A stretch of 64,000 bases of DNA from Candidatus Magasanikiibacteriota bacterium (GCA_016182085.1 JACOYB010000004.1:147923-211922), one strand, 5' to 3'; positions 2,036 to 42,212 are shown, counted from the stretch's first letter. Numbers and translations are program-made. The notes: generated from the letters alone by a model not told the origin.

Positions 2036-2067
2036 TCTATTTTTAGATAAATTTTTGTCTTGCCATA

Positions 2068-2096
2068 TTGACAAAATGATAAATTTATGGTAAGAA
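2068..2096 (+). promoter_or_regulatory. Host-type sigma70-like promoter upstream of high-GC cassette 1
   Basis: TTGACAAAA -35, 17-bp spacer, TAAGAAT -10-like. Followed by a roughly 110-nt mid-GC leader with hairpin GGCTCTCCggttGGAGAGCC and a GGGGAGG RBS 7 nt before the ATG at 2209. Confidence 0.4.
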
Positions 2097-2208
2097 TGTT
2101 CTCAGAAGGCTCTCCGGTTGGAGAGCTGCTTTGACATAAAACTGCGTCCAGGGGGTACTAACTTCCGGACGTTTGTTCACAAATTCACCCTTCACGGGGA
2201 GGTCTGTC

Positions 2209-4563
2209 ATGGGATTTAACGACTTTTTCGCTGATAGTGCGACTCGTAGTCACCAGGGCGGTTCCACCTCGGATACCGCCAAATCCGGATTCAGTCCGGC
2301 GCCGGGCAGGACAAGCCTTACGTCCGATCTTCCGGCGGCAACGCAGTGGGATCGGGAAGCGGAGCGAGCGATCGGCCGTGCAAATCGGCACTTGGATGAG
2401 TTGCCCGAATTGATTCGGGCGGCCAAGGACACCTTTGGAAATGTCCAGTTCCAAGAAGCCAAAGCGGCCATTGGCCAACTGGAGAACAAGCTCTCGCTCG
2501 CTCAAGATAACGCGGGCAGAGCCAAAGGGATTCTGGGTCATGGCAGTGTTGAGAATAAGGCGCTGCTGGAACAGCTGGATATGCTGGAGCAGCGGATTCA
2601 ATCCGCCAAAGAAGATGTGGCGCCGATTCTGGCACGGAAGCCGCCAGAGACCAAGAGTGTTCCATTCTCCCTTCCTGGGGTAGATGAGGAACCTGACGCG
2701 GTTGGTAAATGGGAGAAAGAGCAGACTGCTACCCAGGATTCCTGGGAGACCACGCAGACTGCGATCAATTCATTGCCACCCGATGAGCGAGAGCCCGTTG
2801 GGTACGAGCAGGAAAGCTGTCGGGTTCGAGGCCCGGTGGCCGACAATGCCTTTGAGGGGATCAAGCTATTCATCAAGGCTCGAGCCGAGGATGATATTGA
2901 TCACGCCTACGACATTACGTATCCTTCCTTCTTGGTCGGACCAGGCAAGGTTGGTCCGTACAAGCTGGATCCGGCGCTCAAAGGCGGAAAGGTAGTGTTC
3001 TTCCTGGCTCACCATTCGGAGCGAGGTTACCCCGAGTGGGTCATCGGCCCCGATAACGTGGAAGAGTTCAGGCAGAACATTGACGCGTACGTTGGTGCGG
3101 CTCGCACGGCGCTGCCAGGAAGCAAAAAAATTCCTGGCTCACAGGCCGATGGGGCCGACAAGTTTCCCCACGACCCCTCAATGCTTGAGCTTGAGGCGTT
3201 TGGCAAAGCGCCTTACCAGCAACAGCTGGGTGCAGGACAGAGCGAAGCCCCCTTCAACCAGCCGAAGGAACACTCCGGAATGTTCGGGGTGATGTGGGAT
3301 GGACTCACCGAAGGGATGGATGAAGCCAATGGCGGCAGTTCTGCTGTTGGCGCGCGTAATGCGCATATTCGTCTGACTGACTACGTGGAGAAGGCTCGGG
3401 AAATCGCCCGTCAACTAATGGCGGACGTAAACTCGGGAAAGATGCAGCATCTGGATGCTCGCGGCGCAGCCGTGGCCGGTCGCAACGATTTGATGCGAGG
3501 TGTGAGAGAGCGGATGTCACCATCCGCGCGCTATACCTCACAGAAGATCAAGGCAGACGATGGCATCTCCGAAGGCGCCATGGTCAAGAAGAAGGTGCCG
3601 GATCTCCTGAATGCGGCGCGAAAGGGCGGGGATGGTATGCGAGTTCTTGGTCAGGCAGGTAGTCCGGAAGATCTCCGCAAGTTCTTGGGAGAAGAATCCG
3701 AAGCCTGGTCCAAGTATCTCAAGGCTCTTGAGGCTGGCGAACCTAGCAAGTCCGTAACCTCAAAAGCTGTTCAGGAGATGAGTCAGCAGCCGTCGGTCAG
3801 CCGTGCCATCATCAATTCTGCTGGCAAGAACAACCAAACGGTAACCAGGCTTGTAAAGCTGGGTCGTGTGGCTGGTGCGGCAGGGGCCGCAGCCGGTGTT
3901 GTTGATATGGCTCAAACCATTTACAACGCCGAAGATGGAGAGCGACTCCACGTGGCTGCGGGTGAGCTCGGTGGATTTGTAGGTGGAATTATTGGCGCTG
4001 AACTTGGCGCCATGGCCGCAGTCTGGGTTGCGTCACTGATCATTTCTGGTCCGGCTGCGCCTGTCGTGCTGGTCGTGTCGCTTATCGGCGGCATGGTCGG
4101 CGGAGCGATTGGCGCGCAAGCTGGGCACGAAATGCCGAACATGGCAACTGCGGCGCTTGGCGAAGGCCTTAACGCGGTGGTTACTCCCGGATCCGGGCAA
4201 GCCGGTGGCTATGCTGGTATGCACCAGCGCAGCTCCCAGGCTGGCAAGGACAAGATGAACACCGCGGAACGGTTGCGTCAGATCCAGGACCAGCTCGATT
4301 CGGATATCAGGCAGGCTGAAACCGAAATCAAGAAGGCCAAGGATCGGGACGATCTTGACCGTTGGCAGTTGCAGCGGCTTAACCTGCTGAACTATCGCGA
4401 CCAGGTCGGCGGTATCTACCAGCTCCTGCGGGCTGGCAAGATCAACGAGACCCAGGTCTACGAACTGATGGGTGAAGAGGTCGTCAAACCCGAACCTCAG
4501 GAGTGCGCTCCTGAAGAAGAATCGGAAGGCGGGGCCAATGAAGTTTCTGAAGTTGAGCGGTAA
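2209..4563 (+). CDS. Hypothetical large protein on a high-GC island: coiled-coil N- and C-terminal regions plus a glycine-zipper transmembrane segment
   Basis: 784-aa ORF (ATG at 2209 after GGGGAGG; the ORF track extends upstream to a TTG at 2173). The locus is about 60% GC in a roughly 40% GC genome, with GC-rich third codon positions. Gly-zipper region AGAAGAAAGVV..GGFVGGIIGAELGAMAAVWVASLIISGPAAPVVLVVSLIGGMVGGAIGAQAG. Flanking coiled coils. No recognisable catalytic motif. Confidence 0.6.
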   Translation: MGFNDFFADSATRSHQGGSTSDTAKSGFSPAPGRTSLTSDLPAATQWDREAERAIGRANRHLDELPELIRAAKDTFGNVQFQEAKAAIGQLENKLSLAQDNAGRAKGILGHGSVENKALLEQLDMLEQRIQSAKEDVAPILARKPPETKSVPFSLPGVDEEPDAVGKWEKEQTATQDSWETTQTAINSLPPDEREPVGYEQESCRVRGPVADNAFEGIKLFIKARAEDDIDHAYDITYPSFLVGPGKVGPYKLDPALKGGKVVFFLAHHSERGYPEWVIGPDNVEEFRQNIDAYVGAARTALPGSKKIPGSQADGADKFPHDPSMLELEAFGKAPYQQQLGAGQSEAPFNQPKEHSGMFGVMWDGLTEGMDEANGGSSAVGARNAHIRLTDYVEKAREIARQLMADVNSGKMQHLDARGAAVAGRNDLMRGVRERMSPSARYTSQKIKADDGISEGAMVKKKVPDLLNAARKGGDGMRVLGQAGSPEDLRKFLGEESEAWSKYLKALEAGEPSKSVTSKAVQEMSQQPSVSRAIINSAGKNNQTVTRLVKLGRVAGAAGAAAGVVDMAQTIYNAEDGERLHVAAGELGGFVGGIIGAELGAMAAVWVASLIISGPAAPVVLVVSLIGGMVGGAIGAQAGHEMPNMATAALGEGLNAVVTPGSGQAGGYAGMHQRSSQAGKDKMNTAERLRQIQDQLDSDIRQAETEIKKAKDRDDLDRWQLQRLNLLNYRDQVGGIYQLLRAGKINETQVYELMGEEVVKPEPQECAPEEESEGGANEVSEVER

Positions 4564-4975
4564 TCGTACCCAGAATCGGGCGACCTTGTGGATGGTTGAC
4601 GTGGGATTGTTCCTGTTCGGAATGTTTGCCGCGTTTACCACGTATGTGTTAGTTCCCCAACTGAACCGCTCGTTGCCTGTGTGGACACTGGTATTCTTGC
4701 TGCCAGTGCTAACATTTACGGTACGAGTCCAGTTCGTCAAATCTGAGAACGGCGTAATTGCAAAATTCATCTACTTCTGGCTGTTTGTTCCGTATAGGTT
4801 CAGTAGTCAGGAAGTGGTGGATGTAGCGACAAGCTGTAGTTCAGATGATCTGGACAAAGAAGATGAGCTGGGGTTGATGAGGAGGGACGGAAACCACAAC
4901 TGGATTGAGTGCTACGGCGCAAATGCCGTGGCTCAGTGGATACGAAAATCCACCGGTTTGAACCTCGAACCGTAG
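4538..4975 (+). CDS. Hypothetical small membrane protein (2 predicted TM helices) on high-GC island 1
   Basis: ORF overlapping or abutting the 3' end of the large island gene. Possible starts are ATG 4538, GTG/ATG about 4592, or ATG 4472 in the track. Hydrophobic segments LFLFGMFAAFTTYVLV and LVFLLPVLTFTV. Same high GC as its neighbour. Confidence 0.4.
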   Translation: MKFLKLSGNRTQNRATLWMVDVGLFLFGMFAAFTTYVLVPQLNRSLPVWTLVFLLPVLTFTVRVQFVKSENGVIAKFIYFWLFVPYRFSSQEVVDVATSCSSDDLDKEDELGLMRRDGNHNWIECYGANAVAQWIRKSTGLNLEP

Positions 4976-5030
4976 TTGCAAGAGGAGGTCAGTCGTCTGG
5001 TCGGAGCAATCCGAACAGACGCGAAGTTTC

Positions 5031-5069
5031 AAAGCCGGCGGCTAGTATAGCGCCGGCTTTTGTATTTTT
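5031..5069 (+). terminator. Rho-independent terminator closing high-GC island 1
   Basis: AAAGCCGGCGgctagtatagCGCCGGCTTTTGTATTTTT. The sequence composition returns to AT-rich host DNA immediately after. Confidence 0.6.
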
Positions 5070-5079
5070 ATAGTTTGGA

Positions 5080-5108
5080 TTGACAAAGAGGTAGGTGTAG
5101 ATTATAAT
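5080..5108 (+). promoter_or_regulatory. Promoter for tRNA-Leu
   Basis: TTGACA (5080-5085), 17-bp spacer, TATAAT (5103-5108), about 20 nt upstream of the tRNA 5' end. Confidence 0.55.
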
Positions 5109-5127
5109 TTGTCATACATATAAATTA

Positions 5128-5209
5128 GCCGAAGTGGCGGAATTGGTAGACGCACACGACTCAAAATCGTGCGGAGAAATCCATGAGAGTTCGATTCTCT
5201 CCTTCGGCA
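5128..5209 (+). tRNA. tRNA-Leu (anticodon CAA), class II tRNA with long variable arm, CCA not encoded
   Basis: GCCGAAGTGGCGGAATTGGTAGACGC D-arm. Anticodon stem CACGA/TCGTG with loop CTCAAAA. Long variable arm. T-arm GAGAGTTCGATTCTCTC. Acceptor 3' strand CTTCGGC plus discriminator A. Followed by terminator hairpin AAAGACCCGCGAGTGCGGGTCTTTATT (5218-5244). Confidence 0.85.
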
Positions 5210-5338
5210 CAAATAATAAAGACCCGCGAGTGCGGGTCTTTATTATTTTGGTTGCTCTAGAGAATTGAACGCCGGAGTGGTGCTGAGTTTTTTTATTAAA
5301 TTGTTTGTGGTATAATATTTTTGTCTTATACATTATTT

Positions 5339-6112: not shown

Positions 6113-6206
6113 TTTTTAATAGTGTCATCCTGAACTTGTTTCAGGATCTGTATATTTAATAACTAAAGAGATGCTGAAAACTTGTTCAGCATGACAGATA
6201 AAATAT

Positions 6207-7049: not shown

Positions 7050-7065
7050 AATTGAGGGTGTTATG

Positions 7066-8568: not shown

Positions 8569-8612
8569 ATTAAGTGAATTTTATCTTATTTAGGTGATTA
8601 AATCAATCTGAC

Positions 8613-8690
8613 TGTCATTCCCGCCACAGCGGGAATCCAGGTGATTCGTTCGATCGGATACTAGATTCCCGCTGTGGCGGGAATGACAAC
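8613..8690. repeat. Cargo-less MITE-like palindromic element: two inverted copies of the GTCATTCCCGCCACAGCGGGAATCCAG hairpin repeat separated by a 20-bp spacer
   Basis: Copy 1 at 8613-8640 and inverted copy at 8661-8690. Each copy is itself a hairpin (ATTCCCGC-N4-GCGGGAAT). Same family as the terminal inverted repeats of the GIY-YIG element at 56693-57062. Sits in the relA promoter region. Confidence 0.8.
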
Positions 8691-8700
8691 GATTTAAAAT

Positions 8701-8730
8701 AAAACAAACGTGAATATTCACGTTTGTTTT
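8701..8730 (-). terminator. Perfect 30-bp palindrome, likely terminator of gyrA
   Basis: AAAACAAACGTGAATATTCACGTTTGTTTT, immediately downstream of the gyrA stop on the minus strand. Confidence 0.5.
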
Positions 8731-8765
8731 ATAAATATTATTTTTATAATTACTAGGGACGAGGC

Positions 8766-11231
8766 TTACATTAGTGTCACACTCGCCACTCTGTCGCCAT
8801 CCTCTTTAAATCGCATCAGGCGGACGCCTTGGGTGGCGCGGCCGGAAGAATTGATTGATCCAAATGGCAGGCGAATTACCTGGCCTTTGGCCGACATGAT
8901 AAGCAAGTCTTTTTCTTTAAATTCCACAGCATCCACCACTTTGGCAAATGTTAAGTTGCCGGTCTTGGCTGTGATTTCGGCGGTTTTGATACCGCTGCCG
9001 CCGCGTCCTTGTACTTTATATTCATCCAGTTCCGTGCGTTTGCCCACGCCATTTTCACCGACGGTTAAAAATGCCAGACTTTTATTTTTCGGATCAACGA
9101 TATCCATGCCAATCACTTCATCGTTGCTTTTTAGCCGCATGCCGCGCACACCGCTGGCCGTGCGTCCCATCTCACGAACATCTTTTTCTTTGAAGCGAAT
9201 GGCCTGGCCTTGTTTGGTGGCAATCATAATTTCGTCGCTGCCGGTGCTTGGTTTTACCCATTCCAAATTATCGTCTAGCTTTAATTTTATGGCGATGAGG
9301 CCGCTGCGGCGAACATTGGCAAAATCCTCCAGAGCGGTTTTTTTGATATTGCCTTTGGTGGTGGTCATGACCAAATATTTAATATTTGTCATATCTTTCA
9401 TTCCGAGCAGAGCCGTAACTTTTTCGTTCGGCGCGAGCTGTAAAAAGTTTATCAGCGCTTGGCCTTTGGCAGTGCGGCTGGCTTGGGGGATATCATAGGC
9501 CATAAGCTGGAAGACACGGCCACGGTTGGTGAAAAATAGTATATTGTCGTGGGTATTGGTGCTTACCAGATTTTCCACGCTTTCTTCTTCTTTGGTGGTT
9601 ACACCAATGACACCCTTGCCGCCGCGGGATTGTTGGTGGAAAGTGTCCGGAGGCAACCGTTTGATATAACCATCCGAAGTTACCATAATAATAGTAGCTT
9701 CGTTTGGAATTAAATCTTCGGTCGTAAATTCTTTAATGCCATGGGCAATAATTTGGGTGCGTCTTGGCTGGCCGTATTTTTCTTTTATAGCTAAAGTTTC
9801 ATCCTTAATTATTTTTAGTATTTTGGCTTTTGAAGCAAGGATAGATTCTAGTTCTTTTATAAGGGCTTTCTTTTCTTTTAATTCATCTTCAATTTTTTGT
9901 CGTTCCAAGTTGGCTAGCTGTTGGAGTTTCATTTCCAAAATAGCCACGGCTTGGCGGTCGCTGAATTTGAATTTGGACATTAAATTGCTTTTGGCTTCTT
10001 CTTTGTCTTTGGAAGAACGGATAGTTTTAATGATCAAATCAATTTTATCCAGAGCCATGCTTAAACCCTCCAAAATATGGGCGCGGTCTTTGGCTTTGGC
10101 CAAATCATATTCGGTGCGGCGGCGGATAATTACTTGTCGGTGTTTAAGGAATTCTTCCAAAACATTTTTAATATTTAAAACTCTAGGTTGAATGCCGTCA
10201 ATTAAGGCCAGCATGTTGTAGTGGAACGTAGTTTGCAATTCTGTCATTTGGAACAACTTGTTCAACACTTTTTTCGGGTATGCGTCTTTTTTTAAATCAA
10301 TAACTACGCGTACGCCATCTTTGTTGGATTCATCGCGTAAATCTTTAATGCCTTCAATTTTTTTCTCCTGCACCAGATCGGCAATTTTTTCCAAGAGAGT
10401 TGCTTTGTTAATGTTATAGGGAACTTCGGTAATAACAATTTTAAATTGATCGGCTTTGCCTTCTTGGATTTCAGCTTTGGCACGTATCACAACGCCGCCT
10501 TTACCGGTAGAGTAAGCGGTTAAAATATCTTTTTTATTATAAATAATACCGCCGGTAGGGAAGTCCGGGCCTTTTATAAGCTCAGCCAATTCTTCTACGG
10601 AAGTATCCGGATCATCCATAAGTTTAGCCAGGCCGTCGCAGAGTTCGCTTAGGTTATGTGGAGGAATAGAGGTGGCCATACCAACTGCAATACCCATAGT
10701 GCCATTGAGCAGAAGATGTGGCAGTTTGGCTGGAAGAACAGTTGGTTCGGTATGGGAGCCGTCGTAGTTAGGAATAAAATCAACCGTTTCTTTTTCTATA
10801 TCAAACAGCATCTCTTCGGCCACGGCCATTAGTTTGGCTTCGGTATAACGCATGGCAGCGGCATTATCGCCATCCATGGAACCAAAGTTACCCTGGCCGT
10901 GTACGAGCGGGTAGCGCATGGAAAAATCTTGAGCCATACGTACCATGGCGTCGTATATGGAAGCATCGCCGTGCGGATGGTATTTGGCCATCACTTCACC
11001 GACCACGTGGGCGGATTTGCGGAAACGAGCGGTGTGGCGCAATCCAATATCCCACATTGCGTACAGTACGCGGCGATGTACGGGTTTTAATCCGTCTCGC
11101 ACATCCGGAAGCGCACGGGCCACGATCACGCTCATCGCGTATTCCAAATACGAAGTTTGCATTTCTTCTACCAGAGATGCTGGGGTAATAAGTCCAAATT
11201 CTTGAGGGTTAAGTTCTAGTTTTTCTTGCAT
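8766..11231 (-). CDS. gyrA: DNA gyrase subunit A
   Basis: [28 protein letters not shown] active-site region. GyrA-box-like QSRGGKG. 821 aa. Confidence 0.95.
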
Positions 11232-11240
11232 AAGGTATTA

Positions 11241-12288: not shown

Positions 12289-12503
12289 CTAAAGTAGGGG
12301 GTGAAAGGCTATATAAAAGTTAGGTATATTTTATCATTCCGTAGGCCGCTTTGCAAGTGGGTCGCGGCCCTGAAATCATTGACAATTAGTGGTAATTATG
12401 TTCCTTCTGTGATAGAATCTGAAAACTGTTAAATTTATTACAAAAGGTTGAGAAGTCTGTAACTTTATAAGTTTTAGTGGGTATCTATATAGATATAGGG
12501 GGG

Positions 12504-12532
12504 TTGACAAAAGGCGGGTTTTGTGGTATCAT
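12504..12532 (+). promoter_or_regulatory. Consensus sigma70-like promoter for the surface-protein cluster
   Basis: TTGACAAAA -35 (12504-12509), 17-bp spacer, TATCAT -10 (12527-12532). Confidence 0.5.
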
Positions 12533-12568
12533 TCCCAGTTAATTTTTTAAAAATAATTCAAGCAATAT

Positions 12569-19978: not shown

Positions 19979-20002
19979 GAATTAACAACCAAAAAACACC
20001 CA

Positions 20003-20031
20003 TTGACAAAATGGGTGTTTTTTGGTATATT
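20003..20031 (+). promoter_or_regulatory. Host-type promoter embedded in the terminator hairpin, upstream of high-GC cassette 2
   Basis: AAAAAACACCCATTGACAAAATGGGTGTTTTTTGGTATATT: TTGACA -35 (20003-20008) inside a hairpin, 17-bp spacer, TATATT -10 (20026-20031). Followed by a GC-rich leader and an AAGGAGAAGG RBS. Confidence 0.45.
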
Positions 20032-20118
20032 ATTGCGTTATTCCCAGAGAGGGGAAGACCCTTGGTCCCGGGCAGGGACAAAATGCTTTTCGGGCTTTTA
20101 GTCCGAAGGAGAAGGCAA

Positions 20119-20598
20119 ATGGCCAAGTACAATGATTTGACGATGGGCCAGGTAGAGGCGCTCGTCAACAAGATCGGCGGTATGAGGAAGGTGCAGGCGA
20201 TCCTGCGCGGTGATCTTGAGCTGAACGTGGAAGTTGCTGCGCAAGAGCACCGGCAAGACCTCCCATCCGACTTTCTAGCGCACAAGCATGGCGCCTATAG
20301 GGTGTTGCGAGATGTAGAGCCGACCAAGTTCGAGCCGGGCAAGCCGCTTTACTACCACCCGGATATGGGTTTGGTGGATGCGGTTTTCTTGCTGGAAAAT
20401 CAGCACAGGATGGCAGCCCAGTATAGTGGGTTGTCAGAGCTAGAGTTCCACGGAACCCTTCTCCAGAGTGCCTGGGCATATTGGGAAATATCCCATGCAT
20501 ATCTGAGGCGTGTTACCATACCGGATGTGGCACAACGAGGTTTGACAGAATGGGGTTTGATATTCAAAGCCCTTCCTAACAAACACCTCGCCAAGTAG
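20119..20598 (+). CDS. Hypothetical protein on compositionally foreign high-GC cassette 2
   Basis: 159-aa ORF with strong RBS AAGGAGAAGG. About 60% GC with GC-rich third positions, in an AT-rich intergenic context. Followed by GCGCCTCG...CGAGGCG hairpin plus T-run (20606-20655). No recognisable domain. Confidence 0.55.
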   Translation: MAKYNDLTMGQVEALVNKIGGMRKVQAILRGDLELNVEVAAQEHRQDLPSDFLAHKHGAYRVLRDVEPTKFEPGKPLYYHPDMGLVDAVFLLENQHRMAAQYSGLSELEFHGTLLQSAWAYWEISHAYLRRVTIPDVAQRGLTEWGLIFKALPNKHLAK

Positions 20599-23608: not shown

Positions 23609-23783
23609 TGTCATTCTGAGTGGAACGAAGAATCCCTGTATATCATTCCCGCCAAAGCGGGAATCCAGACAATCGGATACTGGATTCCCAATTCGTTGGG
23701 AATGACAGGCGAAGATCCCTCCCGCCCGAACGTACACGTTCGGTACGGGCGGGCGTCGGCTAAAGCCTCGCTTGGGATGACAA
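23609..23783. repeat. Cluster of hairpin repeats of the GTCATTCCC...GGGAATCCAG family plus a GC-rich palindrome
   Basis: Copies at 23609-23636 (diverged), 23641-23668 and inverted 23681-23708 (spacer ACAATCGGATAC). Palindrome CCCGCCCGAACGTAC/ACGTTCGG..GGGCGGG at 23721-23753. Partial copy TTGGGATGACAA at 23772-23783. Confidence 0.8.
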
Positions 23784-23844: not shown

Positions 23845-25872
23845 ATGCCACTATTCCAACTCCACTCAAAATTTAAACCAGCTGGAGATCAGCCCGAAGC
23901 TATTAAACAATTAATGGCTAGTTTGGATAAAGGAAATCGTTATCAAACTTTGCTCGGGGTAACCGGTTCGGGTAAGACTTTTACTGTCGCCAATCTTATT
24001 ACGCAATTTGATCAGCCGGTCTTGGTAATGGCGCCCAACAAAGCCTTGGCCGCGCAGCTGTACCGTGAATACAAAAATTTCTTTCCCGAAAATTCGGTGA
24101 ATTATTTTGTTTCTTATTACGATTATTATCAGCCAGAGGCATATATGCCAACCAGCGATACCTATATAGAAAAAGAATCAATGATAAATGAAGAGATAGA
24201 CAGGTTGCGCCACCAGGCCACCAGCGCGCTCGTGTCTCGCAAAGATGTAATTGTGGTTGCCTCTGTATCCTGTATATATAACTTGGGTGTGCCAAATAAT
24301 TATTTTGAATCAGCCGTGCATTTGGAAATAGGGCAGCCGATGGTGCGAGCCGATCTTATGCGACAGCTGATAAAAATTCAATTTGCGCGCACGCCCGGAG
24401 CTTTAGAGAGAGGTAAGTTTCGTGTGCGGGGTGATGTGTTTGAAATAGCGCCAGCGGCCGATAAATTTTTGTATAGAATAGAAATTAAAGACCAAAGAGT
24501 GGCCGAGATTTCTGTAATAGATGCTCTAACAAAAGTTGTAAAAGAAAATCTAAAAGAAGCGGTAATATTTCCGGTAAAACATTTTGTGTCTTCAGAGCCG
24601 CAAATGAAGGAAGCGCTCAAAGAAATAAAAGCCGAACTAAAAGACCGCTTGGCATATTTTAAGAAAAAAGAATTGTATTTGGAAGCAGAACGGCTAGAGC
24701 GTCGTACTCGATATGATTTGGAAATGTTAAAAACTTTGGGTTTTTGTCATGGAATAGAAAATTATTCTCGGCATTTGGCCGGCAAGCTGGCCGGAGAAGC
24801 GCCGGACACTCTATTGGCATATTTTCCGTGGAAAGACGGCAAACCGGATTTTTTAACCATTATGGACGAATCACATATTGGCTTGCCCCAAGTGCGAGGT
24901 ATGTATGCCGGAGACAGAAGCCGTAAAGAAGTGCTGGCTCAGTATGGCTGGAGATTGCCTTCGGCTTTGGATAACCGCCCGCTTAAATTTGATGAATTTG
25001 AAAAAAGAGTCGGGCAAGTGGTATTTACTTCGGCTACTCCGGGGGATTTTGAAATGACCAAATCCAGCACTATTGCCGAACAAGTTATTCGCCCAACAGG
25101 ACTAATTGATCCGCCAATAGAAGTCCGCCGCGCCTCGCCGACAATAAACCCCACCCCTTTCCCCTCCCCTTATAGGGGAGGGAACGACACCAATAGTGTT
25201 GTTTCCCCCGCTCCGGTTCTCTCCCCTACAAGGGGAGAGATAAAGAGAGGGGTTTACAATGGCCAAGTAAATGATGTAATGCAAGAAATTGAAGGAATAG
25301 TTAAAAGAGGCGAACGAGCGATTATAAACGTGCTCACCAAAAAAATGGCCGAGGAATTATCGGAGTTTTTGCTTCAAAGAAAATTCGCGGTAAATTACCT
25401 GCATTCTGATGTAAAAACTTTGCAGCGCACGGAAATTTTGAATGATTTTCGTCTCGGAAAGTTTAGTGTGCTAATTGGCGTAAACTTATTGCGTGAAGGT
25501 TTGGATTTACCGGAAGTAACTTTGGTAGCGATTATGGATGCGGACCGAGAAGGGTTTTTGCGCAGCGAAGAGTCGCTTATGCAGACTATGGGCCGCGCCG
25601 CTAGAAATGTGAGTGGTAAAGTTATTTTGTATGCGGATACGCTTACTAAATCAATAAAAAATGCGATGAAGGAAGTGGAAAGACGCCGTAAGTTGCAATT
25701 GGAATATAATGAGAAACACGGTATTACGCCACAAACAACTCATAAAGCGATAGAACAGTTTTTGGATATTCCGGATGCGCCTGATCCCGCTAATTCTAGA
25801 TCAGGTAAAATTAGTACGGAGCCAGATCGTAGAGGTAAAAGATCAATTAAAAAGCAAACGGAGAAAAAGTAG
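23845..25872 (+). CDS. uvrB: Excinuclease ABC subunit B (UvrB) carrying an in-frame insertion of about 40 aa derived from palindromic repeat DNA
   Basis: MPLFQLHSKFKPAGDQPEAI start. Helicase motifs GVTGSGKT and DESH. UvrB C-terminal region. The segment ...VRRASPTINPTPFPSPYRGGNDTNSVVSPAPVLSPTRGEIKRGVYNG-QVNDVMQEI has no counterpart in canonical UvrB and is encoded by two CCCCT/AGGGG hairpins at about 25135-25262. Confidence 0.9.
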   Translation: MPLFQLHSKFKPAGDQPEAIKQLMASLDKGNRYQTLLGVTGSGKTFTVANLITQFDQPVLVMAPNKALAAQLYREYKNFFPENSVNYFVSYYDYYQPEAYMPTSDTYIEKESMINEEIDRLRHQATSALVSRKDVIVVASVSCIYNLGVPNNYFESAVHLEIGQPMVRADLMRQLIKIQFARTPGALERGKFRVRGDVFEIAPAADKFLYRIEIKDQRVAEISVIDALTKVVKENLKEAVIFPVKHFVSSEPQMKEALKEIKAELKDRLAYFKKKELYLEAERLERRTRYDLEMLKTLGFCHGIENYSRHLAGKLAGEAPDTLLAYFPWKDGKPDFLTIMDESHIGLPQVRGMYAGDRSRKEVLAQYGWRLPSALDNRPLKFDEFEKRVGQVVFTSATPGDFEMTKSSTIAEQVIRPTGLIDPPIEVRRASPTINPTPFPSPYRGGNDTNSVVSPAPVLSPTRGEIKRGVYNGQVNDVMQEIEGIVKRGERAIINVLTKKMAEELSEFLLQRKFAVNYLHSDVKTLQRTEILNDFRLGKFSVLIGVNLLREGLDLPEVTLVAIMDADREGFLRSEESLMQTMGRAARNVSGKVILYADTLTKSIKNAMKEVERRRKLQLEYNEKHGITPQTTHKAIEQFLDIPDAPDPANSRSGKISTEPDRRGKRSIKKQTEKK

Positions 25873-25937
25873 TTGTGCCCTTTAAAAAACAGTACGCCGG
25901 TCTCTTGAGGAGGCCGGCTGACGAGAATGAGCGGGTT

Positions 25938-26321
25938 TCAGTTTTTACCGAAGGCTTTACGAATGTAGTCGGTGTAATCGAACTTGACTACAGCGGCATT
26001 GCATCCGGCTTTCATGAGTTCGCTATTGCTCTCATCACTGCTTGAAGCTGCAACGATCAGGCCGCGGAATCCCATGTCCCTGAAGTGATGTACAAGTGGC
26101 GTGGTGGTAAGCTCTCCATCCTTAATCACATCGTTATCGTTGCGAGGCACGCTGCCATCTACGGTGATGGCCACGATATCGGGATGCTGGGCGTAGAGAT
26201 TCTCAGCTTCGGCAATAGTACGCGCAAAGACCATTTCTATGTAATCTATCAGCATGTCTGGCCAGAGTTGCTGGCATGAAGGATTATCTTCCACGACCAG
26301 AATTTTCGGCAGATTGCCCAT
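25938..26321 (-). CDS. Stand-alone receiver (REC/CheY-like) domain protein, atypical
   Basis: 127 aa. KILVVEDN acidic pocket, putative phospho-acceptor in AITVDGSV, LIVAASS and a later Lys. No output domain. Locus GC about 50%, above the host background. Confidence 0.55.
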   Translation of the reverse strand: MGNLPKILVVEDNPSCQQLWPDMLIDYIEMVFARTIAEAENLYAQHPDIVAITVDGSVPRNDNDVIKDGELTTTPLVHHFRDMGFRGLIVAASSSDESNSELMKAGCNAAVVKFDYTDYIRKAFGKN

Positions 26322-26523
26322 AGGTCCCCCCTTTGAGACTTGGTTATATATAAGCTAACACCAGCAACTAAATAAATCAATAGATCTAATAATATGAAAA
26401 GAAATAACAAATATTCTTTAATATAAAAATAAGACGCTGTCTGGGTAGACAGCGAGGCCCGTGAGGTGGAGCCAATTACCTGTTGAAGGATCATTTTTCT
26501 TGATTTGTGAGGTTCGGACTCAA

Positions 26524-26886
26524 TCAGATACCGAGAATCTCTCGAATTTTATCGACCACTTGGTCCTTGCGAGCTTCGTGTTCGCATCCACTAATCACTC
26601 GCAGATCGAAGTTGGAATCAATACTGTTCGAACCAGCAATCATGCGAGCCCCATATCCGGCCTCTCCGAGCCGCTTGGCCAGCAAAACGGTATCTCCACT
26701 TTCGTGAAGAGATCCGTCCACGACGATCACATCGAAATCAGGGACAGTGTGGGCGAGAATCTGGTTGACGACCGTGGTCGCCCCAGCTAGCGTGGTAACT
26801 GGCACAATCTCGACCGTAGCGGGTAGATCCTGACGATACTTGGTTTGCCACTCAGTGAGATCCTCGATCACCAGTACTCTGGGCAT
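26524..26886 (-). CDS. Stand-alone receiver (REC-like) domain protein, paralog of 25938-26321
   Basis: 120 aa. RVLVIEDL, DVIVVDGSL, MIAGSNS. Aligns with the neighbouring REC ORF. Own terminator hairpin CGCTGTCTgggtAGACAGCG at 26437-26458. GC about 52%. Confidence 0.55.
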   Translation of the reverse strand: MPRVLVIEDLTEWQTKYRQDLPATVEIVPVTTLAGATTVVNQILAHTVPDFDVIVVDGSLHESGDTVLLAKRLGEAGYGARMIAGSNSIDSNFDLRVISGCEHEARKDQVVDKIREILGI

Positions 26887-26992
26887 GGATTTCCGCCTTA
26901 GGTTGAAGTTGAGTTGACACTACCATTTTTGACTAAAAAAGTCAATGCTCAACACAGGTTTATTAAAAAATTTAATAGGCATAATTTCAAAT

Positions 26993-29491: not shown

Positions 29492-29638
29492 TTTAATTTT
29501 TTATATTTAAGACAGGAATTCAAGGGGTTTTTAGGTTGACAAAAACCCTGTTTTTTGTTATTAGTAAAGTTAACAAAAAGGCAAAGTATCATAGGCATTT
29601 TGCCAAAGGTATTAGCCCAAAATTTGAGGAGGGGAATC

Positions 29639-30214
29639 ATGCTTCCTGCCGTAGATCGTATTGTGGATCGTTTGCTTGGATCAGACAACCAGGTACCGCC
29701 ATTGCGTCAAGTGAGTTCGACCGTACCGCGCAAGGTAATGGTTGTTCTGGATGTTAATTTGGAACAGTGGATTGAAGTGGCGAAAGAGCGGGGCGCTTAC
29801 CAGAAAGTACATATTGGCACATCGGGCATTCCTCGTCCGCCATGGCATCCCGATAACATTCCTGTGGCCAGGTTTTCAATGCCAGATCCGTCCAGCGCGT
29901 GGTCGGTGGTGCGCGCCGTGTCCTTCAATCAGCGGGTTAGTATGGATGAAGTGAAGGGGTTTATTCGCTTTACCCATCTTGAGCTATTTACTACTCCCGA
30001 ATATTATTCCGATACGGCCAGCGCTTTTGAGCATATTGCGTTGGACATACAGTATCCGGAAGTGACAGACGGGCTCAGCATTATTTCGTTTGATAAAGAG
30101 AGTTGCTCGCCCCGTCTGGTGTCTTGCGGTCCGACCGGAAATCGTGAGCTCTTCGTGGGGCCGTTCATTCCCAACATGCTGCGGTCAGAAAATACGCATT
30201 GGCTGTTGCGATAG
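29639..30214 (+). CDS. Hypothetical protein on compositionally foreign high-GC cassette 3
   Basis: 191-aa ORF with GAGGAGGGG RBS. About 58% GC. Upstream TTGACAAAA box inside hairpin AAGGGGTTTTT..AAAAACCCT (29526-29557). Downstream hairpin GGGACCC...GGGGTCC plus T-run (30234-30300). No recognisable domain. Confidence 0.55.
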   Translation: MLPAVDRIVDRLLGSDNQVPPLRQVSSTVPRKVMVVLDVNLEQWIEVAKERGAYQKVHIGTSGIPRPPWHPDNIPVARFSMPDPSSAWSVVRAVSFNQRVSMDEVKGFIRFTHLELFTTPEYYSDTASAFEHIALDIQYPEVTDGLSIISFDKESCSPRLVSCGPTGNRELFVGPFIPNMLRSENTHWLLR

Positions 30215-30362
30215 CTGGAGCGTTCTTTAAGTAGGGACCCTCGCTTATCCTACCTGTAATAGGGGTAGTGACCGCGGGGTCCTGTTTGTTTTTATAAACA
30301 TTTGTTATACTAAAAATCAGAATAATTTAAATATTTATTATTTAATTCACTCACTTCATATT

Positions 30363-32377: not shown

Positions 32378-32619
32378 CAGGCTGACAGGTTGGCGGTCTG
32401 GAGAAAATTCTAGTATTATAAGTAGATAATATTTTGTTCTTTCTAACGCTTGACTGAAACACTATATTTTGCTACTAATTACTTTGAGTATTTTGGACTT
32501 GGAATTTAAGAGTATCTGAATTAGATATTTTAAAATTCCAAGCCCATGTCAACGAGTCCGCCGGTTGACACCTCAGGCTGAGGTTTCTGCGGATTGTTCC
32601 AAAATTGCGGGGGTTTGCA

Positions 32620-32949
32620 ATGAAGAACGGATCCAGGACTCGCGGTCAGGCTGGTAAGTTGCGCGCGGGTATGGGAGCTTTGCTCCGAGATACCAAGAAG
32701 TACCTTCCCGGATACGAGGATCTTCACCAGGCGCTTGCCTGCAACAACATCAAACGGGCGCGAGAACTTCTTGATGCGCTCAGGGCAGTAGGGAGTGGAG
32801 CTGCGCTCTATTTGCCAAAAGAACGAAACGGCGTACCAGCGCCGCAACTTGTAACCACAAGGAGTAGGCTGCTGGCCCGACTGACTCAGGCTCGCGTAGC
32901 TAATGGTCTATACCTACGGCTACAGAGCCAGGGTCAGGATAAATGGTGA
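32620..32949 (+). CDS. Hypothetical small helical protein on compositionally foreign high-GC cassette 4
   Basis: 109-aa ORF (alternative TTG start at 32605). About 62% GC. Followed by hairpin GGGAACGGtagggggtacgCCGTTCCC (32967-32993), then a perfect TTGACA-17-TATAAT host promoter at 33004-33032. Confidence 0.5.
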   Translation: MKNGSRTRGQAGKLRAGMGALLRDTKKYLPGYEDLHQALACNNIKRARELLDALRAVGSGAALYLPKERNGVPAPQLVTTRSRLLARLTQARVANGLYLRLQSQGQDKW

Positions 32950-33003
32950 TTTTTGGCAGTATTTGAGGGAACGGTAGGGGGTACGCCGTTCCCGCCTCAT
33001 GAC

Positions 33004-33032
33004 TTGACAAAATAATGCCTGTTTAGTATAAT
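33004..33032 (+). promoter_or_regulatory. Consensus sigma70-like promoter upstream of rpsA, with structured leader
   Basis: TTGACAAAA (33004-33009), 17-bp spacer, TATAAT (33027-33032). The leader contains palindromes ATATGGGCTAAAGCCCATAT (33125-33144) and AAGTTAAATACATTTAACTT. Confidence 0.55.
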
Positions 33033-33203
33033 TTAGTTAATAAAATTTAACGTAAGCCCTCCCAATTTAGAGGCGGGCACCTATGCCGATTTAATTGGCA
33101 GGGATAAAAAGGTTTTTTTGTTTATATGGGCTAAAGCCCATATATACTCATTCGTTCGCAATAAGTTAAATACATTTAACTTATTGACTCACTCATTTCG
33201 AAT

Positions 33204-34349: not shown

Positions 34350-34440
34350 TCTAAGAGGGCAGACTTGAAAAAGTCTGCTTTTTTGGCTAATTTTAGAGCT
34401 TGATTTTTTTATTAAAACAGAGTAAAATTCCTTAATAATT

Positions 34441-36288: not shown

Positions 36289-36373
36289 AATTATAAAATT
36301 TAAAACAAAAACCCGATCGCTCAGTGCGGTCGGGTTTTTGTTTGTGCTTTCAGTTATGGTATAATGTAAATAG

Positions 36374-37363
36374 TTGTTTTTATATTTTTCAATTTGTATG
36401 AAAGAGCCATCATATCGCCAAACATTAGGCCACGCCTGGCAGGTAGTTTGGGAAAATAAAATTTTATGGATACTGGGACTTCTATCTGTTTTTTTGGGGC
36501 AGATCGGCTTCAGTGATACGTTTGGCAGGATTTGGTCAATGTTTGATACGACTCTTACGGGCCAAGGATTTTCACTAAGACCGCTGCTTATTTTTGAGCT
36601 CACGGGCAGCTTCTGGAATATTTTTGGCCTGGCCTGGCTTATGGTAATTTGCATATCAGTATTTGCGCTATTGATTTTTTTGGCAGTTGCTTCGCAGGGT
36701 TCGCTTATTACATATGTGGCTGAGTGGTTTAAAACCGGTAAGCACCAAATTTTGGCCAAGTCTTGGCGCAACAGCGTAAAACATTTTTGGAGCGTGCTGC
36801 TGGTAAATATAGTTAGGCAAGCCTTAATGTTCTTACTGCTTGTTGCTTTTGCTTATACCGCTAACTATTTTTTTAATTCAGGTAATTTGGCGCAAGGGTT
36901 TCTGTTTGCTCTGGGCGCGGTTTTACTTTTGTTTTTTTCTTTGGTTTTTTCGGCTTTGTGCGTATATACTTTATGTTATGTGTTGCTAGATGGAAAGGGA
37001 GTGGTAAAATCTGTTAAAAAAGCCTGGATGTTATTTTCAGAACATTTACTTGTATCTTTGGAAATAGGAGTTCTCTTAATGTTATTAAATTTTTTGTTGA
37101 TCCTGGCAATTGTAATCGGATCATTCTTTGCTTTCTTACCGGCCGCGCTTATCTGGATAGTGGGTGGTATTACCAATTTGGCGGTTTTAGGCGCGGTAGG
37201 TTTGGTGATCGGTATATTTTTACTGCTATTATTTATCGTTTTTTCAGCTGGTTTTTTCAATGCCTTCACTATCAGTGCCTGGGTATTTTTATTTATGAGA
37301 ATGCACAAAGAAGGGCTTTCCAGCCGGTCTATTCATTTTTTTAAATACTTATTTTCCAGGTAG
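36374..37363 (+). CDS. Hypothetical polytopic membrane protein
   Basis: At least 6 hydrophobic helices. No recognisable motif. Probable true start at MKEPSY (about 36398). Confidence 0.45.
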   Translation: MFLYFSICMKEPSYRQTLGHAWQVVWENKILWILGLLSVFLGQIGFSDTFGRIWSMFDTTLTGQGFSLRPLLIFELTGSFWNIFGLAWLMVICISVFALLIFLAVASQGSLITYVAEWFKTGKHQILAKSWRNSVKHFWSVLLVNIVRQALMFLLLVAFAYTANYFFNSGNLAQGFLFALGAVLLLFFSLVFSALCVYTLCYVLLDGKGVVKSVKKAWMLFSEHLLVSLEIGVLLMLLNFLLILAIVIGSFFAFLPAALIWIVGGITNLAVLGAVGLVIGIFLLLLFIVFSAGFFNAFTISAWVFLFMRMHKEGLSSRSIHFFKYLFSR

Positions 37364-37456
37364 TTTAATTTCTTACCAGTTATAAGCGAAGCTTTAAATT
37401 ACGTCGGGCTTCGAAAAAAGAAAATACATTTTCTTTTTTACTCACCCCTAGAAATT

Positions 37457-39187
37457 ATGAGTGATTTTCCTTCTATAAATAGTTTGCTTGGCCAGTCAAA
37501 GTCAAAACCTTCCGGAGCGGCTGCAAGTCCTGCGGGCGCCAGTCAAGATGCGGGCAAAAAGTTTGAGAAAAAAATTCATGAAATAGACCTTAAAGCCAAA
37601 GAAGAGTTGGTGGCAAAAAATGCCGCCAGTCTTGGTTTGGGGTATATAGATTTATCGGCTTTTCCCATTACCGCCGAAGCGCTTAAAACAATTTCCGAGA
37701 AAGATGCTACGGAACAAAAAGTAATTTGTTTTTTTAATGTTCCCGGAGAAATACGGCTGGGCTGCGTGGAGTATAATGACGCGATTAGCGAGCTTGCGTA
37801 CCAATTAGGAGAAAGCCACCATGCCAACACGCAAGCATATTTAATATCTGAAAATAGTTTGGCCAAAGCCATGAAGCTATATGCCAATTTGCCAGTCATT
37901 AAACCGGTAACCAAAGATATTAATATTACCGACGAGGAATTAGAAAAATTTAAATCCGGCGTTATAGATTTTAGAAGTTTAGAAGCTCAGTTTTTAAATG
38001 TTTCTATCAGTGATATTTTAACTTTAATAATTGCTTCGGCACTGAAGGTAGAATCATCCGATATTCATGTGGAAGCCGAGGAAAATGGCATCATGGTACG
38101 GTATCGTATCGATGGTATTTTGCATGACGTGGCCACCTTGCCCAAAGAACAGTGGAAAAAATTTGTTTCCCGCATAAAACTCTTGGCGGCGTTAAAAATA
38201 AATATTACGGATCGGCCGCAGGACGGCAGGGTAACATTAAAACTATCTTCAGGAAGTTTGGATGTGCGTGTTTCCACCATGCCGACTATTTACGGGGAAA
38301 GCGTGGTAATGAGAATCTTGCATAGCGGCAGCAAGGGCGTTACGTTTGATGAACTCGGGTTGCGCGGTGATGCGTATGCAAAATTGAAGAAAGAAGTAGA
38401 ACGACCAAATGGCATGATAATTACCACCGGTCCGACCGGTTCGGGCAAGACCACAACTATGTACGCCATTATGCGCACTCTCAATAAACCGGGGGTAAAA
38501 ATTATAACTTTGGAAGATCCGGTAGAAATTAAAATTGAAGGCATCAATCAAAGCCAGGTGGATGCCAGCCGCGATTATACTTTTGCCAAAGGTCTGCGCA
38601 GTTTGTTGCGCCAAGACCCGGATATTTGTTTAGTAGGTGAAATCAGAGATTTGGAAACAGCTGAAATCGCTATTCAAGCGGCCTTAACCGGACATTTAAT
38701 ATTATCTACCATTCATACCAACAGTGCTTCCGGTACTATTCCACGCTTCTTGTCTATGGGGGTAAAGCCATTTTTGTTGGCGCCGGCCTTGAATTCCGTA
38801 ATTGGTCAAAGACTGGTGCGAAAAATTTGCTCACATTGCCAGGAAGAAGATAGGCTAACGTCAGAACAAACAGAGCGCGTCATGAAAAATTTGGAAACAT
38901 TACCCGAAGCGGAAAAAAAGAACGTTGATTTTAAAAAGCTAAAATTTTTTAAAGGCAAAGGCTGTGAAGAGTGTAGTGGTTTGGGCTATAAGGGCAGAAT
39001 CGGAATCTATGAAATTTTCACCATGAACAAGGAAATTGAACAGGCAATTTTAGGCAGTCAGATTTCTGAGTATGCTATCCAGGAATTAGCCGTAAAAGGT
39101 GGTATGGTCACTATGGTGCAAGACGGCTTGCTAAAAGCCCTGGATAAAATTACAACCGTAGAAGAAGTCTTCAGGGTAATTGAATAA
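37457..39187 (+). CDS. Type II/IV secretion (type IV pilus) ATPase, GspE/PilB family
   Basis: N-terminal GSPII_E_N-like domain. Walker A GPTGSGKTTT. Asp and His boxes. C-terminal tetra-Cys motif CSHC...CEEC. Confidence 0.85.
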   Translation: MSDFPSINSLLGQSKSKPSGAAASPAGASQDAGKKFEKKIHEIDLKAKEELVAKNAASLGLGYIDLSAFPITAEALKTISEKDATEQKVICFFNVPGEIRLGCVEYNDAISELAYQLGESHHANTQAYLISENSLAKAMKLYANLPVIKPVTKDINITDEELEKFKSGVIDFRSLEAQFLNVSISDILTLIIASALKVESSDIHVEAEENGIMVRYRIDGILHDVATLPKEQWKKFVSRIKLLAALKINITDRPQDGRVTLKLSSGSLDVRVSTMPTIYGESVVMRILHSGSKGVTFDELGLRGDAYAKLKKEVERPNGMIITTGPTGSGKTTTMYAIMRTLNKPGVKIITLEDPVEIKIEGINQSQVDASRDYTFAKGLRSLLRQDPDICLVGEIRDLETAEIAIQAALTGHLILSTIHTNSASGTIPRFLSMGVKPFLLAPALNSVIGQRLVRKICSHCQEEDRLTSEQTERVMKNLETLPEAEKKNVDFKKLKFFKGKGCEECSGLGYKGRIGIYEIFTMNKEIEQAILGSQISEYAIQELAVKGGMVTMVQDGLLKALDKITTVEEVFRVIE

Positions 39188-39219
39188 AATTCAAGCCAGA
39201 TTGATTATTTTTGCAAACA

Positions 39220-39279
39220 CCCTCTCGCCTCGCTGTGGCGGGCGAGGGGTTCAGATCTCGTCCCGACGCGAGTCGGGAC
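39220..39279. repeat. Two GC-rich hairpins, the first sharing the CCCGCCACAGCG core of the GTCATTCCC repeat family
   Basis: CCCTCTCGCCTCGCTGTGGCGGGCGAGGGG (39220-39249) and GTCCCGACgcgaGTCGGGAC (39260-39279), between the pilB-like gene and recG. Confidence 0.6.
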
Positions 39280-39330
39280 TCCGATGTGTTGCCAAAATAA
39301 TCAATCCGGCTTTTTATTTTTCTTTACAGT

Positions 39331-41460: not shown

Positions 41461-41557
41461 AATGTAATAGGTAAGGCTGGAAGTGTTGACTCCTATTTTG
41501 TTTTTGTGTATCCTATTGTTGGCAAGGAAATTTTTTTGCCAAAGGAGCTCTTTCACA

Positions 41558-42175
41558 ATGACAAGTTCGAATATCCTTATGCCGACCGAAGCAGAAATCA
41601 GATGGTGGGTTTTGCATGTAACACAACATGCATATAACATCGAGTATTTTCTGCAAGAGTTAGGCCTTGGTAGCCAAGATCCGCAGCGACCGCATGATAT
41701 TGTTGGTTTGGGAAATAAGTTTGAGTGGGAAGTGATGTGCGGCTATGCCATACAGCGACGCGATAGAAGCCGGCAGTTTTTTGAGACACATGTACTGCCA
41801 TCTCTTAAACGGCATCGATGCCAGCATCATCATGTGATGTGGAATGAACCAAATGAGAGGGCTACGGTCGATGATATGAAGCTTGGTGCGGTCGATGCAG
41901 TCTGCTCACTACTTGAGCCTCGGGAGTATCAGGGAGGGGCGCATTCATTTGATCAAGTCTTGGCAATTGTGCCGCGCAATTCTATGCATAAGCAACCGTG
42001 GATAATCGAGCTCGTGTCAGAGATGCGTAAGTTGCCGATGCCTCCCATCGAGCGAATCGAATCTCTTAATGAGATACCGAATGTCGGAGTTTCAAGAAAC
42101 ACGCACGATATCGTGCGACAGCGTGTGGAAGAAACACGACGATACCTTAGGGATACATACGGAGCATGCGTTTGA
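41558..42175 (+). CDS. Hypothetical protein on GC-elevated cassette 5
   Basis: 205-aa ORF with AAAGGAG RBS. About 48-50% GC against about 40% flanks. Followed by bidirectional hairpin AAGGACTCcaatGAGTCCTT (42178-42205). Unusual His/Cys-rich segment KRHRCQHHHVMW. No recognisable domain. Confidence 0.5.
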   Translation: MTSSNILMPTEAEIRWWVLHVTQHAYNIEYFLQELGLGSQDPQRPHDIVGLGNKFEWEVMCGYAIQRRDRSRQFFETHVLPSLKRHRCQHHHVMWNEPNERATVDDMKLGAVDAVCSLLEPREYQGGAHSFDQVLAIVPRNSMHKQPWIIELVSEMRKLPMPPIERIESLNEIPNVGVSRNTHDIVRQRVEETRRYLRDTYGACV

Positions 42176-42212
42176 TTCTAAGGACTCCAATGAGTCCTTC
42201 TGCTTTTCCGGG

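Follow-up and report, generated by a model that had tools for sequence, protein, structure and literature searches.

Small GC-rich accessory units between core genes of a Candidatus Magasanikiibacteriota genome

We describe about seven small GC-rich accessory units, each a single transcription unit and together encoding eight proteins, that lie between core genes in a 64,000-nt stretch of the metagenome-assembled genome of a groundwater Candidatus Magasanikiibacteriota bacterium (GCA_016182085.1, JACOYB010000004.1:147923-211922; hereafter the window, which is 42.6% GC and whose first nucleotide is position 1). These units, here called cassettes, are probably accessory genes of the flexible genome, of GC-richer origin than their host, that occupy hotspots of gene gain and replacement lacking mobile elements. 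A first-pass annotation of the sequence had regarded them as compositionally foreign and as acquired horizontally from a GC-richer pool, and this remains the best reading when all three codon positions are considered.

GC-rich units in core-gene gaps

Every open reading frame (ORF) proposed in the first-pass annotation was found in its place. The asnS|tRNA-Leu gap holds C1, composed of C1a (2209-4563, + strand; 784 aa, annotated HYT15_01040) and C1b (4538-4975, +; 145 aa, with two membrane helices); their GC contents at third codon positions (GC3) are 0.61 and, in its own frame, 0.64. C2 (20119-20598, +), a 159-aa orphan with a GC3 of 0.62-0.64, occupies calx|NHL. Two stand-alone receiver domains are encoded in uvrB|uvrA: REC1 (25938-26321, -; 127 aa, GC3 0.555) and REC2 (26524-26886, -; 120 aa, GC3 0.554). 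The 191-aa orphan C3 (29639-30214, +; GC3 0.54) lies in uvrA|gerMN, the basic 109-aa orphan C4 (32620-32949, +; GC3 0.53) in uvrC|rpsA, and C5 (41558-42175, +; 205 aa, GC3 0.46), a member of an HD-like family, in recG|radA.

Relative to a baseline of 34 core genes (GC3 0.395 ± 0.040), six of the seven units stand 3.3-6.0 standard deviations above the mean (C1a 5.4, C2 6.0, REC1 4.0, REC2 4.0, C3 3.5, C4 3.3), as anticipated from their GC-rich third positions; the claim did not extend fully to C5, which is marginal with a z-score of just 1.6. Delimited as maximum-scoring segments, the GC-rich blocks span 2108-5057 for C1 (56.4% GC), 20043-20540 for C2 (55%), 25895-26331 for REC1 (52%), 26553-26897 for REC2 (55%), 29626-30284 for C3 (52%), 32538-32998 for C4 (56%) and 41663-42054 for C5 (51%). 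The first cassette is therefore GC-rich as had been noted, though at 56.4% rather than the approximately 60% first estimated. The promoters of C1 and C2 are AT-rich and their GC-rich blocks start ~11 nt past the predicted -10 box; hence, in these two cases, the block coincides with the transcribed unit. The 150-nt flanks adjoining the blocks are 21-45% GC, with sharp composition steps at the unit borders.

Such steps are what might be seen if GC-rich contaminant DNA had been mis-assembled into the contig, and one 3,004-bp Logan contig (L001, run SRR12113420) corresponds to cassette 1 alone, matching window positions 2066-5069 at 100% identity, exactly from the promoter -35 box to the terminator. 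Nevertheless, per-run Logan contigs from three runs (SRR12113420, SRR12113422 and SRR12113430) join core genes to cassettes at 100% identity, spanning calx-C2-NHL, uvrA-C3-gerMN-uvrC-C4 and asnS-C1a, and metagenome-assembled genomes (MAGs) and contigs of unrelated studies (L004, L083, L084, L085 and L087) keep equal adjacencies in diverged sequences. For practical purposes these independent assemblies refute mis-assembly, the outcome that the first-pass annotation had named as fatal to its own proposal. That L001 ends at the C1 borders may be due to strain differences that split the assembly graph or to coverage alone, and we draw no conclusion from it; an interpretation as a presence/absence polymorphism was dropped, since a contig of a different run extends across the left C1 border.

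The Muto-Osawa and Lawrence-Ochman regressions are an established way to proceed from codon-position GC to genome GC. Applied to the pooled window cassettes (GC1/GC2/GC3 = 0.632/0.426/0.559, for the three codon positions), they indicated genomes of 59/59/52% GC, versus 38/37/42% for the core genes; 23 pooled cassettes from sibling genomes gave 56.6/56.7/55.8%. The cassettes thus look like ordinary genes of a 55-60% GC pool, in which the codon positions differ in the proportions seen between whole genomes. Because GC1 and GC2 move together with GC3, the shift characterizes the gene pool and is not confined to silent sites. Cassette amino-acid usage is raised in Arg, Pro, Ala and Gly and lowered in Lys, Ile, Asn and Phe, and neither a local silent-site process nor amino-acid bias alone would yield the three-position shift.

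These data bear on an alternative that we consider unlikely, in which the cassettes are native, vertically inherited, fast-evolving genes specific to the clade, with no foreign origin, and in which selection acting on their mRNA or on the proteins, or else GC-biased conversion at recombination-prone loci, actively maintains their GC content. Biased conversion or silent-site selection should mainly affect GC3, whereas here GC1 and GC2 rise with it. Intergenic DNA directly beside the cassettes is 21-39% GC, which also speaks against native genes and rules out a regional process that raises GC. On the same values, de novo birth of the cassettes from intergenic DNA was rejected.

Gap contents and divergence among sibling genomes

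A search with the window UvrA against 185,579 species genomes returned only assemblies of the Patescibacteria, or Candidate Phyla Radiation (CPR), and yielded eleven siblings with UvrA identities of 82-93% (L002-L010, L024 and L026), the nearest being L004. At the same gaps L004 carries REC1, C3 and C4 at 83%, 65% and 91% identity, respectively. The asnS|tRNA-Leu(CAA) gap contains both C1a and C1b in all three siblings available for it (L083, L084 and L085), with C1a orthologs at 74% and 41% amino-acid identity, versus 92-93% for GyrA and 93-95% for ParA, and C1b 44% identical in L083. The only sibling at hand for recG|radA (L087) has a C5 ortholog with 59% identity and a GC3 of 0.53 versus 0.34.

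The synteny of C1, REC1, C3, C4 and C5 in siblings does not support the earlier picture of six independent recent insertions and is a point in favor of native genes. Conservation of the ORFs at their loci across the whole lineage, which the first-pass annotation had set against its own reading, was therefore found in part. When the same gaps were compared for presence and absence, however, they proved to contain the same gene, a different gene, tandem units or nothing, with differing or empty content at uvrB|uvrA, uvrA|gerMN, uvrC|rpsA and calx|NHL among up to 11 sibling loci.

The nearest sibling lacks both C2 and REC2, which counts against native genes. C2 is also missing from L007, and in L004 the calx|NHL gap is reduced to a 172-bp terminator region. 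In the REC2 slot L004 has an unrelated, Cys-rich and GC-rich ORF of ~112-115 aa (9572-9916, -; GC3 0.62). One edge of this swapped segment is a -35 region, ATTGACTTTT, shared by the window and L004; the other, 3' edge is the REC2 terminator (26435-26454, -), common to L004 together with the AT-rich REC1 promoter region. Upstream of C4, L004 contains two more complete promoter-ORF-terminator units, and L004 and the window become homologous again 8 nt ahead of the C4 -35 box. The Cys-rich ORF has CxxC, CxxxCxxC and CxxxxxC motifs and its product is probably zinc-binding.

The wider set of siblings shows more of this turnover. In uvrB|uvrA, L002 and L008 each have one REC-like gene, L024 and L026 have other ORFs, and L003, L005, L006, L007 and L009 are empty. 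The REC genes have GC3 values of 0.52-0.58 in five genomes, with a background of 0.36-0.39 where measured. In uvrA|gerMN, an unrelated GC-rich family is present in L005 and L006 and a host-like paralog in L003; the gap is empty in L007, L009 and L010. At least five different GC-rich ORFs (GC3 0.56-0.73) occupy uvrC|rpsA, including tandem arrays of two to three units in L004 and L006, and in L009 and L010 this gap has no cassette and measures just 152 and 248 bp. Unrelated GC-rich ORFs in one gap across siblings, and several gaps left empty, again weigh against native genes. A further GC-rich family roams, sitting in different gaps of different Patescibacteria (L010 17262-17921, GC3 0.80; L065 17016-17729, GC3 0.77; and, weakly related, L005 12598-13197), and the first two members contrast with genome values of 0.42-0.45. 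Its members are 200-240 aa long and share a conserved motif, NGYANIF(Y/H)V...W, at the C terminus.

We conclude that the cassettes do not represent unique insertions, nor are they genes fixed throughout the lineage; C2 and REC2 alone look species-specific.

Cassette genes have ratios of nonsynonymous to synonymous divergence (dN/dS) of 0.13-0.43, and are therefore coding, versus 0.02-0.24 for neighboring core genes; purifying selection on the cassettes is relaxed. Their silent-site divergence (dS) is equal to or below that of their flanks: 0.09 for C4 versus 0.35-0.66, 0.44 for C3 versus 0.58-1.46, 0.70 for REC1 versus 0.90-1.46, and 1.06 for C1a versus 1.3-2.6. When the window is compared with L004, identity at third positions is 93.6% in C4, 83.7% in rpsA and 78.9% in ftsH; the C4 promoter and leader are 97% identical; and overall identity forms a mosaic of 80-86% and 92% blocks. 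The simplest reading of these values would be that cassette units moved between lineages after the lineages split. Alternatively, a dS below that of the flanks could reflect constraint on silent sites, as the native-gene explanation would have it. Polarized substitutions in the C1a trio numbered 108 strong-to-weak versus 54 weak-to-strong, but the saturated GC-rich outgroup gives 2:1 by chance, and the flanking genes of the trio have the opposite bias with an AT-rich outgroup; polarized counts are thus uninformative.

Taken as accessory genes of GC-richer origin, the cassettes could have arisen as follows. Competence pili would take up DNA whose donors were GC-richer and, most plausibly, other members of the Patescibacteria. 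Insertions would survive only at transcription-unit boundaries, where, behind a terminator, they should be harmless even in a compact genome, and could be transcribed from AT-rich sigma-70-type promoters that were already there or that arise easily. Homologous recombination between flanks would then spread, swap or remove units among relatives, a step in keeping with the alternation of blocks at 80-86% and 92% identity. Patescibacteria of high GC content (49-61%) occur among the loci that we fetched. They are the most economical donors, and with them the compatibility of ribosome-binding sites and terminators would be explained as well.

Several observations weigh against this account. Among 5.8 billion proteins there was no donor homolog for C1a or C2, nor did the sampled loci of GC-rich Patescibacteria (only ~2 Mb) contain a homolog of any cassette. 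The absence of C1a and C2 homologs outside the clade is also what native genes would predict. C1 remains syntenic in three species whose flanking genes differ by a dS of >1, and C1a nonetheless keeps a GC3 of 0.57-0.68 against backgrounds of 0.33-0.42, with the highest value in the most AT-rich host, L085. A single old acquisition followed by passive amelioration is consequently a poor fit for C1, which needs either re-seeding with xenologous alleles or upkeep of its GC content; the latter is the native-gene explanation. The case for foreign origin is weakest for C5, which is barely atypical, belongs to a family whose GC3 tracks that of its hosts (mean difference 0.01 over 44 metagenome loci) and has its nearest relatives, in the family tree, in low-GC genomes. 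Finally, uptake and recombination are our inference, the mechanism not having been observed.

The persistence of high GC also leaves room for a more speculative idea, to which we give little credence: that the orphan genes of this Magasanikbacteria clade come from a separate pool, whose high GC is at an equilibrium of its own whatever the composition of the host. If so, an unseen GC-rich reservoir, such as an extrachromosomal element, a phage or the GC-rich host of an episymbiont, might be reseeding the gaps or, alternatively, GC-rich transcripts might be selected in connection with a symbiotic lifestyle.

Genomes of the CPR/Patescibacteria are tiny and streamlined, and little is known of how they innovate. 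The window and its siblings provide an example, resolved to the base, of single transcription units turning over at a few permissive core gaps. As the cassettes are the fastest-changing part of these genomes, they are reasonable candidates for factors of host interaction or competition.

Encoded proteins and expression signals

C1a has N- and C-terminal coiled-coil regions, the only parts modeled with confidence, and a central glycine-zipper membrane hairpin (residues ~587-638) that is its most conserved stretch. Only three relatives were found among the 5.8 billion proteins, all in sibling genomes. A profile search of the PDB gave nothing meaningful, and an AlphaFold2 model built with a three-sequence alignment was unusable (predicted local distance difference test, pLDDT, 41). 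Weak matches were obtained to an RTX N-terminal domain (E = 0.09) and, across the membrane region, to the PHROG "tail associated lysin" (E = 2.5e-5). The start of C1b overlaps C1a by 26 nt, so that the two are probably translationally coupled, and C1b, with its two membrane helices, evolves even faster than C1a (44% identity). Our guess, made with low confidence, is that C1a and C1b are an envelope or pore-forming factor and its immunity or chaperone partner. They resemble toxin or bacteriocin pairs with immunity proteins in their layout, the gene for a large, quickly changing protein with a membrane hairpin overlapping one downstream for a small two-helix protein that changes even faster; unlike those pairs, they have no recognizable toxin, secretion or immunity domain.

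The label given to the REC pair was upheld. Alone, the Pfam receiver match fell below threshold (E = 0.05), but a five-sequence profile matched solved receiver structures (3luf_A, 1.4e-7; 6ont_A, 5.8e-4; Sln1, 6.6e-4). Residues E11, D12, S93 and K113 do not vary among the five sequences, four of which have the acceptor Asp, and REC1 and REC2 are divergent stand-alone receivers that retain the acidic pocket and keep the Asp/Asp/Ser/Lys set.

None of the proteins had been assigned to a nameable family, an impression that holds for the orphans C2, C3 and C4 but not for C5, whose large HD-like family comprises 172 representative clusters. Seven residues of C5 are invariant in 61 homologs (H24, H46, D47, H86, H91, H92 and D113), and from this H/D pattern we consider it a putative HD-like metal-dependent hydrolase. 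There was no significant Pfam or PDB sequence match for C5, with HD_3 at E = 0.09 in one family member, and a single-sequence AlphaFold2 model was unusable (pLDDT 33). C2 has no homolog among the 5.8 billion proteins beyond a 35-aa module: its residues 1-35 (20119-20223), MAKYNDLTMGQVEALVNKIGGMRKVQAILRG, are 71% identical to the start of an unrelated 253-aa protein, P0013 (L086 255-1016, SRR22387861). By eye, the module recurs within P0013 in a more diverged form (...KQLCDFVDKMGGIKNFHTLLSGG...), and the P0013 gene is not GC-rich. C3 and C4 had no match in the Pfam, NCBIfam, PHROGs and PADLOC hidden Markov model libraries.

The first-pass annotation had raised the prospect of a family of effector or defense genes gathered by a specific mechanism (integron-like, moron-like or otherwise site-specific), with a high-GC host of the episymbiont as one possible source. 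Such a gene family, so delivered, we now regard as improbable. In its favor are the layout of C1a and C1b, a membrane-active protein followed by a small membrane partner, and the weak match of C1a to a tail-associated lysin. The cassette proteins are nonetheless unrelated to each other, and their functions are heterogeneous and not those of one system. For the eight window proteins, Pfam, NCBIfam and PADLOC gave nothing significant (PADLOC at E <= 0.05; Pfam was also blank for eight sibling cassettes), and PHROGs gave, besides the weak C1a matches over the membrane region, one marginal match of REC1 to a family of unknown function. No match was found in scans of IMG/VR for C1a and C3, or by tblastn against GenBank phages (C1a, C2 and C3) and PLSDB plasmids (C1a and C3). 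These searches speak against a defense or effector family.

A specific mechanism could also be read from the organization of the cassettes as single-gene units with their own promoter and terminator, in tandem in L004 and L006. The signals themselves are varied. Host-type promoters had been attributed to the units, which is borne out for C1 (2068-2097, +; sigma-70-type TTGACA-18-AAGAAT, AT-rich, with the GC-rich block 11 nt downstream), C2 (TTGACA-17-TATATT with TG, near-consensus with 11/12 matches) and C5 (TTGACT-17-TATCCT); the -10 boxes of C3 and C4 are weak. The putative C4 promoter (32442-32470, +; TTGACT-17-TACTAA) is exactly where a block of 92% identity with L004 starts. Similarly, a strong GGAGG ribosome-binding site was expected for each unit, and GGAGG-like sites precede C1, C2, C3 and C5 but only G-runs precede C4, REC1 and REC2.

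Stem-loops after the stop codons do fold as supposed, with energies of -10.6 to -26.6 kcal/mol. The C1 terminator (5030-5069, +; -19.3 kcal/mol) is followed by a U-tract and lies directly before the promoter of tRNA-Leu(CAA). Those of C2 (20602-20658, +) and C3 (30230-30293, +) each have -26.6 kcal/mol, the latter with a U-tract; a hairpin at 42180-42199 (+) separates the convergent genes C5 and radA. The hairpin after C4 (32965-33001, +; -16.4 kcal/mol) has no U-tract and is followed by a consensus rpsA promoter at 33004.

The promoter embedded in a hairpin, which the first-pass annotation had singled out as a feature of several cassettes, is real. A 17-bp bidirectional terminator of the Calx-like gene (fold 19988-20026; feature with the C2 -35 region 19988-20031, +) has the C2 -35 box as its loop, and a terminator-like hairpin of uvrA (29524-29549, +) holds the TTGACA of the C3 promoter. 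It is not specific to cassettes, however. The fused terminator-promoter module of 28 nt (TTGACAAAA, the right arm of the stem, TTTTTTGGTAT) occurs at 12502-12529, 20001-20028 and 29534-29561, serving C2, C3 and, at 12502, the core Calx-beta gene, with the -35 box in the loop of the upstream terminator. As it also precedes a core gene, the arrangement is the ordinary design of the host and not a mark of cassettes, which counts against a specific acquisition mechanism; it looks like a space-saving device of a compact genome. A 12-mer, TTTTGCCAAAGG, found in both the C3 and the C5 5' leader was rejected as a shared signal because a core gene contains it as well, at 38581, and 4 of 100 shuffles reached its count.

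The flanking core genes had been named correctly: Pfam agreed in identifying a class II aminoacyl-tRNA synthetase, NHL, UvrB, UvrA, Germane, UvrC, S1, RecG and RadA, and tRNA-Leu(CAA), at 5128-5210, was the sole RNA gene found. A PilB-type T2SSE ATPase (37457-39187) beside a 329-aa ORF (region 36374-39187) points to type IV pilus or competence machinery near the hotspots.

Other small elements were noted in and around these genes. uvrB (23845-25872) has an in-frame insert of ~105 nt at 25135-25260 that is missing in L004. The insert is made up of two palindromes rich in G/C, TTCCCCTCCCCttatAGGGGAGGGAA and CTCTCCCCTacaAGGGGAGAG, which occur only there in the window, and adds ~35 residues between UvrB domains. 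It resembles the palindromic elements of Rickettsia that enter genes in frame. A 29-nt hairpin element, TATGGGCTAAAGCCCATATATACTCATTC, in the rpsA leader (33125-33153) recurs in L004 (13330-13355) in another gap, C3|gerMN, within an extra stretch of ~90 bp, and could represent a small mobile element of intergenic DNA. A 33-nt repeat with the palindrome ATTCCCGC-nnnn-GCGGGAAT, its two copies 88% identical, is shared by relA|gyrA (8608-8640) and NHL|uvrB (23636-23668), which are unrelated intergenic regions.

Comparison with known systems

The search for a specific acquisition mechanism, as had been proposed, produced no candidate. Repeat searches of the borders identified no att- or attC-like flanking repeats and no boundary sequence common to the cassettes, and neither the ORF lists nor Pfam searches of the main genes pointed to an integrase or recombinase within or next to the gaps. 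C1 lies upstream of tRNA-Leu(CAA), where neither a duplicated tRNA segment nor an integrase, the hallmarks of a tRNA island, was present. The exact coincidence of the L001 ends with the C1 borders would suit a site-specific mechanism, against which stands the contig that crosses the left border. The uniformity of the units is accounted for by the normal design of the host.

Integron cassettes offer one formal parallel: like them, the window units are compact, have a single ORF, can be stacked in tandem and are exchanged between genomes. Unlike them, the window units have no IntI, attI, attC or common repeat that we could find, are each equipped with a promoter and a terminator, and lie scattered among six loci. 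Phage morons are likewise autonomous promoter-ORF-terminator units of a composition unlike their surroundings, but the window units have no prophage context.

A closer likeness is to the chromosomal hotspots of horizontal gene transfer that Oliveira, Touchon and Rocha are said to have described in Nat Commun in 2017, which are flanked by core genes and lack mobile elements. Their turnover is reportedly ascribed to homologous recombination at the flanks, especially in naturally transformable bacteria. In both cases, accessory genes are located in few core-gene intervals, content varies among relatives, and integrases and transposases are lacking. The window units differ in being single-gene insertions of 0.4-3 kb in a genome of ~1 Mb or less, and in that nearly all their genes are orphans; the comparison rests on ~11 sibling genomes. 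They differ also in the direction of their composition, since acquired genes are usually AT-richer than the host and these are GC-richer.

Within the phylum, a study of groundwater Patescibacteria reported single-gene transfers averaging ~0.9 kb and found that 83% of the detected transfers to Patescibacteria came from other Patescibacteria (PMC12455944). That study cites earlier work in which Patescibacteria are naturally competent through ComEC and pili; its approach depended on donor-recipient pairs that could be identified, and it reports no transferred gene that is unique (orphan) (PMC12455944). Its islands and transfers share with the window units the phylum, the type of habitat and the proposed competence route; dispersed GC-rich single-gene units at conserved gaps are not described there.

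Hotspots, atypical composition and recombination at flanks are textbook phenomena, and the value of the window is that of a documented case with a list of candidate genes rather than of a new principle. What sets the case apart from these systems is the GC-richer direction of the shift, the strict packaging of one gene in one transcription unit, and the orphan content of the units.

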